The position numbers were made by a program, and so were the translations under genes. From the IMG/VR virus record IMGVR_UViG_2778261069_000001: a stretch of 6,317 nt of DNA, one strand, 5' to 3'. Positions 1-166 of this stretch are shown here, piece after piece; position 1 is the first letter of the stretch; each line of letters begins with the position of its first letter. The stretch is from a virus. Lineage: Duplodnaviria; Heunggongvirae; Uroviricota; Caudoviricetes. The notes below the pieces were generated by a model. The model saw only the letters and a list, made by a program, of their open reading frames with translations, was not told the origin of the DNA and searched no databases.

Positions 1-73
1 CGCTCTGACTTTCCAGAACCATACGGACTGCCCGTTGACGGACTTCGGGGGAAAAACGAGTATTTTTAGTCAT
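1..73 (-). CDS. IS3-family transposase OrfA, N-terminal fragment (start codon is the complement of 71-73; the gene runs off the left edge)
   Basis: Minus-strand translation from the complement of 73 gives MTKNTRFSPEVRQRAVRMVLESQS..., matching the N-terminus of IS629/IS1203 OrfA as I recall it. An AGAGG-type RBS lies just upstream on the minus strand. Confidence 0.8.
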   Translation of the reverse strand, partial: MTKNTRFSPEVRQRAVRMVLESQS

Positions 74-127
74 CCTGTTTACCTCTTTCTCAGGAAGTTT
101 AGTCTCCAGGATTCCCGGGGCGGTTCA
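1..127 (-). mobile_element. Terminal ~127 bp of an IS629-like (IS3 family) insertion sequence, including its terminal inverted repeat; the element continues leftward out of the window
   Basis: Reverse complement of 101-127 reads TGAACCGCCCCGGGAATCCTGGAGACT, which I recognise as the IS629/IS1203-type terminal inverted repeat (IS3-family 5'-TG...CA-3' ends). It is followed, in the IS reading direction, by a Shine-Dalgarno and a transposase OrfA start. Identification is from recall, not a search. Confidence 0.8.
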
Positions 128-129
128 CA

Positions 130-166
130 CAGGAGTCATTATGACAAATACAGCAAAAATACTCAA
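130..166 (-). promoter_or_regulatory. Leftward pO-like promoter (oop RNA promoter of lambda) embedded in the 5' end of O: -35 TTGAGT (complement of 161-166), 17-bp spacer, -10 CATAAT (complement of 138-143), predicted start near 130
   Basis: Hexamers read directly from the minus strand with correct spacing. In lambda, oop starts 11 nt upstream of the O ATG, which corresponds to position 130 here. Confidence 0.4.

Follow-up and report, generated by a model that had tools for sequence, protein, structure and literature searches.

The stretch of DNA analysed here, referred to as the window, is 6,317 nucleotides long and represents a lambda-type early-right region, in which no sign of decay was found. 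The replication initiator gene O (141–1040, + strand) is an intact lambda-type open reading frame of 299 aa that matches Phage_rep_O (PF04492), and exact-protein look-up found an identical copy of the O protein on many contigs. The DNA of positions 125–1100, covering O, is 98.5% identical to lambda 38671–39645. Inside O lie the four ori-lambda iterons (489–575), an intact direct-repeat family of four ATCCCTCAAAACGAGGGAAA-like 20-mers, and corresponding ori iterons are shown in the annotation of phage 434. The lambda-type helicase loader gene P (1037–1738, + strand, 233 aa, PF06992) is also intact and overlaps O; its exact protein is present on at least 1000 contigs under the name 'Replication protein P'. 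With four iterons inside O and an overlapping P behind it, the region belongs to the lambda-type O-P-ori module. It continues with ren (1735–2025), the genes of ninB, a Dam methylase, ninE, ninF, ninG, ninH and a Ser/Thr phosphatase (2099–4859), Q (4856–5479) and the start of a membrane-protein gene (about 5740 to the window end). For each protein from P to Q, an exactly matching allele is already known from between tens and thousands of contigs. Neither Rfam nor tRNA scanning of the window gave a match.

Downstream of Q, a promoter-like site (5522–5550) is directly followed by a terminator-like hairpin (5552–5570), a layout similar to pR'/tR'. A second promoter-like site (5712–5741) precedes the membrane-protein gene, which is annotated elsewhere as 'STM1630 family' and runs off the window. 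Several E. coli isolates from chicken share positions 5480–6317 with 100% identity. When the O region (128–1100) and the region downstream of Q (5480–6317) are each compared with chicken strains such as Z1323CEC0007, their best matches fall in different prophages, one at about 3.08 Mb and the other at about 0.81 Mb, respectively. Since the two matches lie in two prophages of the same genome, the window prophage is mosaic relative to these chicken strains.

At the other end of the window, positions 1–127 are the terminal 127 bp of the insertion sequence IS629, lying on the minus strand with the left (IRL) end towards O, and the element continues leftward beyond the window. The segment is identical to IS629/IS3-family copies at 127/127 positions (E = 3e-59), several of the 100% matches carry the annotation 'IS3-like element IS629 family transposase', and the same end was found in 3606 of 5426 complete E. 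coli genomes. The reverse complement of 1–127 reads TGAACCGCCCCGGGAATCC..., with the orfA start at IS positions 55–57. An imperfect terminal inverted repeat of about 25 bp, the IRL, occupies 103–127. It starts with TGAACCGCCCCGGG on the reverse strand (longer reading TGAACCGCCCCGGGAATCCTGGAGA) and has the TG...CA ends of the IS629 terminal repeats; the reverse complement of 103–127 equals the IRL of full IS629 copies, and it agrees with the right repeat (IRR) of a full 1310-bp copy at 23 of the first 25 positions.

In IS3-family elements, orfA (HTH) precedes orfB (DDE), and a -1 programmed frameshift joins the two; IS1203 and IS3411 are isoforms of IS629. The 5' part of orfA lies at 1–73 on the minus strand, with its ATG at 73–71. 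The 24 visible codons, translated as MTKNTRFSPEVRQRAVRMVLESQS, are identical to those of complete copies annotated 'IS3 family transposase, programmed frameshift', and the rest of the gene runs off the window. The placement of the IRL and of the orfA start shows that this is the left IS end, and therefore the transposase genes lie leftward and diverge from O. The preliminary description had called the element IS629-like, and this identification is confirmed; a terminus that matches no IS3-family element is not what was found, the IS629 matches being perfect. Its orientation is settled as well, with the transposase directed away from O.

The IS tip (...GGTTCA) ends at position 127, and only this one IS end lies inside the window. 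Positions 128–140 read CACAGGAGTCATT and the O ATG follows at 141, so that the spacing from the tip to the start codon is exactly 13 bp, as was reported before, correct to the base. The Shine-Dalgarno sequence of O, AGGAG (131–135, + strand), is retained and is identical in lambda and in the relatives examined (L004–L013). The IS leaves the ribosome-binding site of O, the O gene itself, the iterons of ori and P untouched, which bears out the earlier statement that the ribosome-binding site and the reading frame of O are intact. Ten contigs that encode the identical O are all uninterrupted and read ...ACTGGATCAATCCACAGGAGTCATT-ATG; therefore homology breaks exactly at 127/128, which is far beyond chance. 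The same holds for 17 uninterrupted relatives, all of which read ACTGG(A/T)..CACAG/CAACAG-GAGTCATT-ATG. In alignments to lambda and its relatives, the three bases next to the tip, CAC (128–130), are a candidate 3-bp target-site duplication.

The exact junction had no megablast match in 5426 complete E. coli genomes or in 50,697 phage records, and the exact junction patterns had none in GTDB representative genomes, IMG/VR or JGI metagenomes. Exact-protein look-ups with O and with the Dam methylase, the rarest protein of the window, returned only uninterrupted or otherwise rearranged prophages. Since the junction is missing from every collection searched, the event belongs to the source strain alone and is probably recent, and the exact identity of the P-to-Q proteins to widespread alleles also points to a recent origin.

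The length of the IS segment needs a separate explanation. Exactly 127 bp is the usual largest k-mer of SPAdes-type assemblers, and from this length alone the window start is probably the end of a draft contig that was broken inside a repeat. The 127-bp length therefore probably carries no biological information. It also gives some room to the idea that no full element exists, and that the 127 bp are either an isolated fragment of an IS end or an artefact of the assembly graph: only 127 bp are seen, they match a common assembler k-mer, and the junction is unique across the searched collections. However, a true junction with a collapsed repeat normally shows up as a contig that ends in exactly k bases of it. 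The segment is 100% identical to active IS629 copies, and the nine comparator IS629 copies adjoining O are all complete elements of exactly 1310 bp, because of which the prior for a complete IS in the window is high. A solo end or an artefact is thus very improbable, and judged from these matches the IS629 copy is almost certainly real and of the full 1310 bp. That the IS is approximately 1.3 kb long and was inserted here, as described before, is what we infer from one visible end.

The earlier view that the insertion is intergenic does not hold in detail, because the site is located inside the gene for oop, an antisense RNA. In lambda, the -10 region of the oop promoter p_o is at 38684–38688 and the 77-nt OOP RNA has its 5' pppG at 38675 (PMC3349717). 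Lambda 38675 corresponds to window position 130, and therefore the IS sits between oop nucleotides 3 and 4, with CAC as the first three oop bases (complement GUG, +1 at position 130). The promoter p_o itself is intact (138–166, minus strand; TTGAGT-17 bp-CATAAT with an upstream TG) and is the sole promoter-like site in positions 1–400. It lies inside the first O codons and fires leftward, as expected for the oop promoter, and it now points into the IRL and orfA of IS629. Consequently the IS separates oop from p_o: a contiguous 77-nt oop is absent from the window, where nucleotides 1–3 adjoin p_o and are followed by IS629. From the p_o +1 it is 3 nt to the IS tip and 57 nt to the orfA ATG. A transcript from p_o would have its 5' end at window position 130 (GUGUGAACCG...), would read GUG followed by UGAACCGCCCC..., and would reach the orfA ATG after 57 nt.

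Published oop coordinates disagree (PMC5869508 among the sources), and the oop +1 was taken as lambda 38675 here. The phage 434 record (OL657226; L015 530–616) has an 87-nt oop RNA beginning at the O ATG, and the oop start is 38685 in one paper from the Hayes laboratory, while another implies 38675, in agreement with a 77-nt RNA.

The insertion also splits a conserved LexA-like box. A CTG-N10-CAG box spans the oop start in 17 of 17 uninterrupted relatives (lambda 38662–38677, CTGGATCTATCAACAG). Only its CACAG half is kept in the window, where CTG-N10-CAG is absent. The box was located by the CTG-N10-CAG pattern alone and may differ from the published LexA site, a sequence bound by LexA that PMC5869508 places within oop-p_o with reference to Lewis et al. 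1994.

What lies on the far side of the IS can be approached through comparable events. IS629 is located within about 630 bp of O in 46 complete E. coli genomes, and in one more case it truncates O, which together represent about 13 events. The IRL faces O in 14 of the complete genomes and in the O truncation (nine events), and the opposite orientation occurs in the same interval in 32 further genomes, at about four positions. With about 9 versus 4 events and both orientations present, no clear orientation bias near O was found. The window junction is the nearest to O among the IS629 events found. A hot-spot for IS629 near O was considered and not adopted, as by a rough estimate the recurrence would fit the known fivefold prophage preference of IS629 together with clonal inheritance.

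The nine events with the IRL facing O were dissected. Four of them are clean insertions with 3-bp duplications: strain 90-3040 (CAC, 69 bp upstream of O, the next nearest to O after the window), SJ7 (ATT, 128 bp upstream), M1300706002 (GAA, 278 bp) and C7 (AAC, 396 bp). The other five are deletion or rearrangement scars without duplication: CEA106S has an internal loss of cII, kil adjoins the IS in HCP4S3_I4, LC-1302-2020 has a truncated int and a truncated O, and int and gam adjoin the IS in ATCC 43889 and OK1, respectively. The five events seen in a single genome only all lack a duplication and have upstream DNA lost or replaced. IS629 is known to make 3–4 bp duplications, often with adjacent deletions (PMC3271280; PMC2669165), and in a published survey 62% of its copies were located on prophages and a matching 3–4 bp duplication was present at 21 of 47 sites (PMC3271280). 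From the four clean events of nine and the published 21/47, the prior probability that the insertion is clean, and that cII follows directly on the far side of the IS, is about one half, the other half falling to an IS-mediated deletion.

Two side observations were made among these genomes. The IS629 of 90-3040 (three related strains; L027 2360–3573) is annotated with an internal stop, its transposase being a pseudogene, which suggests an older, immobilised insertion compared with the perfect end in the window. In CP025676 and CP157783 (L017 and L023, both at 8135–9303), which share the rare Dam allele of the window, an IS3-family element is joined to ninB beside a truncated integrase. O, P and ren are deleted there, giving another IS-bounded loss of the replication module.

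Taken together, the best explanation is that a full-length IS629 adjoins a lambda-like prophage, with the joint falling between oop nucleotides 3 and 4, as the result of a recent and private event; to this explanation we assign a probability of about 0.8. It includes two structures that differ in what lies upstream. In the first one, a complete IS629 lies between an intact pR-cro-cII segment and O-P as a simple, tolerated insertion with a CAC duplication, the prophage is still inducible, and its replication depends on N-mediated read-through across the IS. Four of the nine comparable events (CAC, ATT, GAA and AAC) are of this type, CAC is present at the site, and the genes from O to Q are all intact. 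Such an insertion predicts a left junction of ...GGATCAATCCAC followed by TGAACCGCCCCGGGTTTCC, the visible right flank being CAC; with the CAC duplication, ...ACTGGATCAATCCAC would be followed by TGAACCGCCCCGGGTTTCCTGGAGAGTG of the IRR, and ...CTGGATCAATCCAC would abut the IRR tip of the same IS copy. Against this structure, the other five of the nine events, including all five single-genome events, lack a duplication and have lost or replaced their upstream DNA, and the left junction lies outside the window and is unmatched in the searched collections. We consider the chance of a simple insertion to be just short of even.

In the second structure, the IS is the left edge of a truncated prophage, formed by an IS629-bounded deletion or rearrangement. 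The genes cII and cro and the promoter pR, possibly together with int to N, would be lost or moved, and O-P would remain as a silent remnant without a phage promoter. Precedents are the kil, truncated int, int and gam joints of HCP4S3_I4, LC-1302-2020, ATCC 43889 and OK1, the cII deletion of CEA106S, and the ninB joint with loss of O-P-ren in CP025676 and CP157783; the matching of duplications at only 21 of the 47 published sites also favours it. In contrast, zero decay was found in O, P, ren, the nin genes and Q. The break spares the O ribosome-binding site by 3 bases, but a staggered cut at CAC and an end-point at the IS tip fit this equally well. The probability of such a deletion is placed somewhat below one half. 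In either structure, the window junction is an ordinary IS629 insertion or a deletion scar of a well-known kind.

The expected effect on O-P expression depends on this upstream structure. The site lies where the pR transcript passes right after cII, as was described before, and we infer that O-P has lost its place directly behind cII and pR. The related claim that transposase genes would be placed between pR and O leaves out of account that these genes are on the opposite strand. Internal terminators of the IS had also been proposed. No convincing intrinsic terminator was found on the pR-sense strand of IS629, where only one weak 5-bp stem inside the IRR was seen and counts were within shuffle expectation. 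The absence of a strong terminator on this strand is in line with a simple insertion, and it means that any polarity would be of the Rho type, acting on untranslated RNA. No consensus site for an outward promoter towards O was found in IS629.

If the insertion is simple, pR transcripts would cross 1.3 kb of untranslated IS antisense RNA. Lambda N-modified elongation complexes resist Rho (PMC12360218), and N-antiterminated RNA polymerase should still read through the IS. O-P expression and the transcriptional activation of ori would then be weakened or N-dependent rather than abolished, and oop would either cease to exert its antisense control on cII or do so in altered form. If upstream DNA has been deleted, O-P would be the silent remnant described above. 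That O/P expression may be reduced, as first proposed, is plausible, and the preliminary description as a whole is partly supported.

Sequestration of the O Shine-Dalgarno sequence by the IS tip was considered separately and rejected. A 6-bp GAUUCC/GGAGUC pairing was found in a 61-nt fold, but it was not significant (z = -0.97); the pairing disappears in a 96-nt context, and the uninterrupted control was similar.

An adaptive role could be added to either structure. The insertion might have been selected because it uncouples the toxic O-P genes from pR, anchors the prophage and avoids replicative killing. Alternatively or in addition, p_o freed of the LexA-like box might drive the IS629 transposase. 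IS insertion in lambda replication genes is a known escape from replicative killing (P::IS2, PMC4926192), IS629 recurs in the cro-cII-O interval (46 complete genomes and one O truncation), and p_o is intact with its +1 close to both the IS tip and the orfA ATG. However, this recurrence is roughly as expected from the prophage bias of IS629 and clonal inheritance, both IS629 orientations occur, and the event is private to one strain. Adaptive rewiring is therefore considered unlikely, and the suggestion that the insertion is possibly regulatory found no support. Still more doubtful is the specific proposal that p_o, set free from a LexA-type box that would normally restrain it, has been captured as an external promoter of the IS629 transposase, or that hits in cro-cII-O were recurrently selected to anchor lambdoid prophages. 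If p_o were captured in a simple insertion, transcripts leaving the IS would run through oop nucleotides 4–77 and stop at t_o; a chimeric transposase/anti-cII RNA of this kind would, if true, couple IS629 activity to the state of the prophage.

IS629 in lambdoid prophages is a well-documented source of prophage decay and strain polymorphism in E. coli, and the window junction has little significance beyond the source strain. An annotator can take it as a sign that oop is disrupted and that the replication control of this prophage is probably impaired or truncated. When genomes are scanned, a repeat segment that is exactly 127 bp long and sits at the edge of a window most likely stems from k-mer overlap in the assembly, and it is uninformative on what lies beyond. 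The mildly interesting angle is the geometry, with p_o aimed into a transposase gene and a LexA-like box split.

The closest natural counterparts are the IS629 copies in lambdoid prophages of E. coli O157 and other STEC. The window IS end matches them with 127/127 identity, and a prophage location is typical there (62%). In contrast, the site in the window, 13 bp before O and in the 5' end of oop, was absent among the genomes searched. Compared with oop/p_o of lambda, p_o and the first three oop nucleotides are identical in the window, whereas the other 74 nt, including the t_o terminator and the antisense part that overlaps cII, are not adjacent here. Among laboratory mutants, lambda r14 (IS1) and r32 (IS2) are polar IS insertions in the cII-O segment that are reported to have reduced O-P expression, with N antitermination suppressing their polarity. 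They likewise place an IS between pR/cII and O-P, but with other IS families, at other positions and with known phenotypes. A spontaneous IS2 insertion in lambda P was found among survivors of replicative killing by the Hayes laboratory ('ilr/RK-'; PMC4926192). In that case too, an IS struck the replication module of a resident prophage, and replication initiation was disabled. The IS2 lies inside the P coding sequence and abolished its function, whereas in the window the O and P frames are intact and it is their upstream connection that is changed: the gene hit by the IS is oop, not cII or one of the replication genes.
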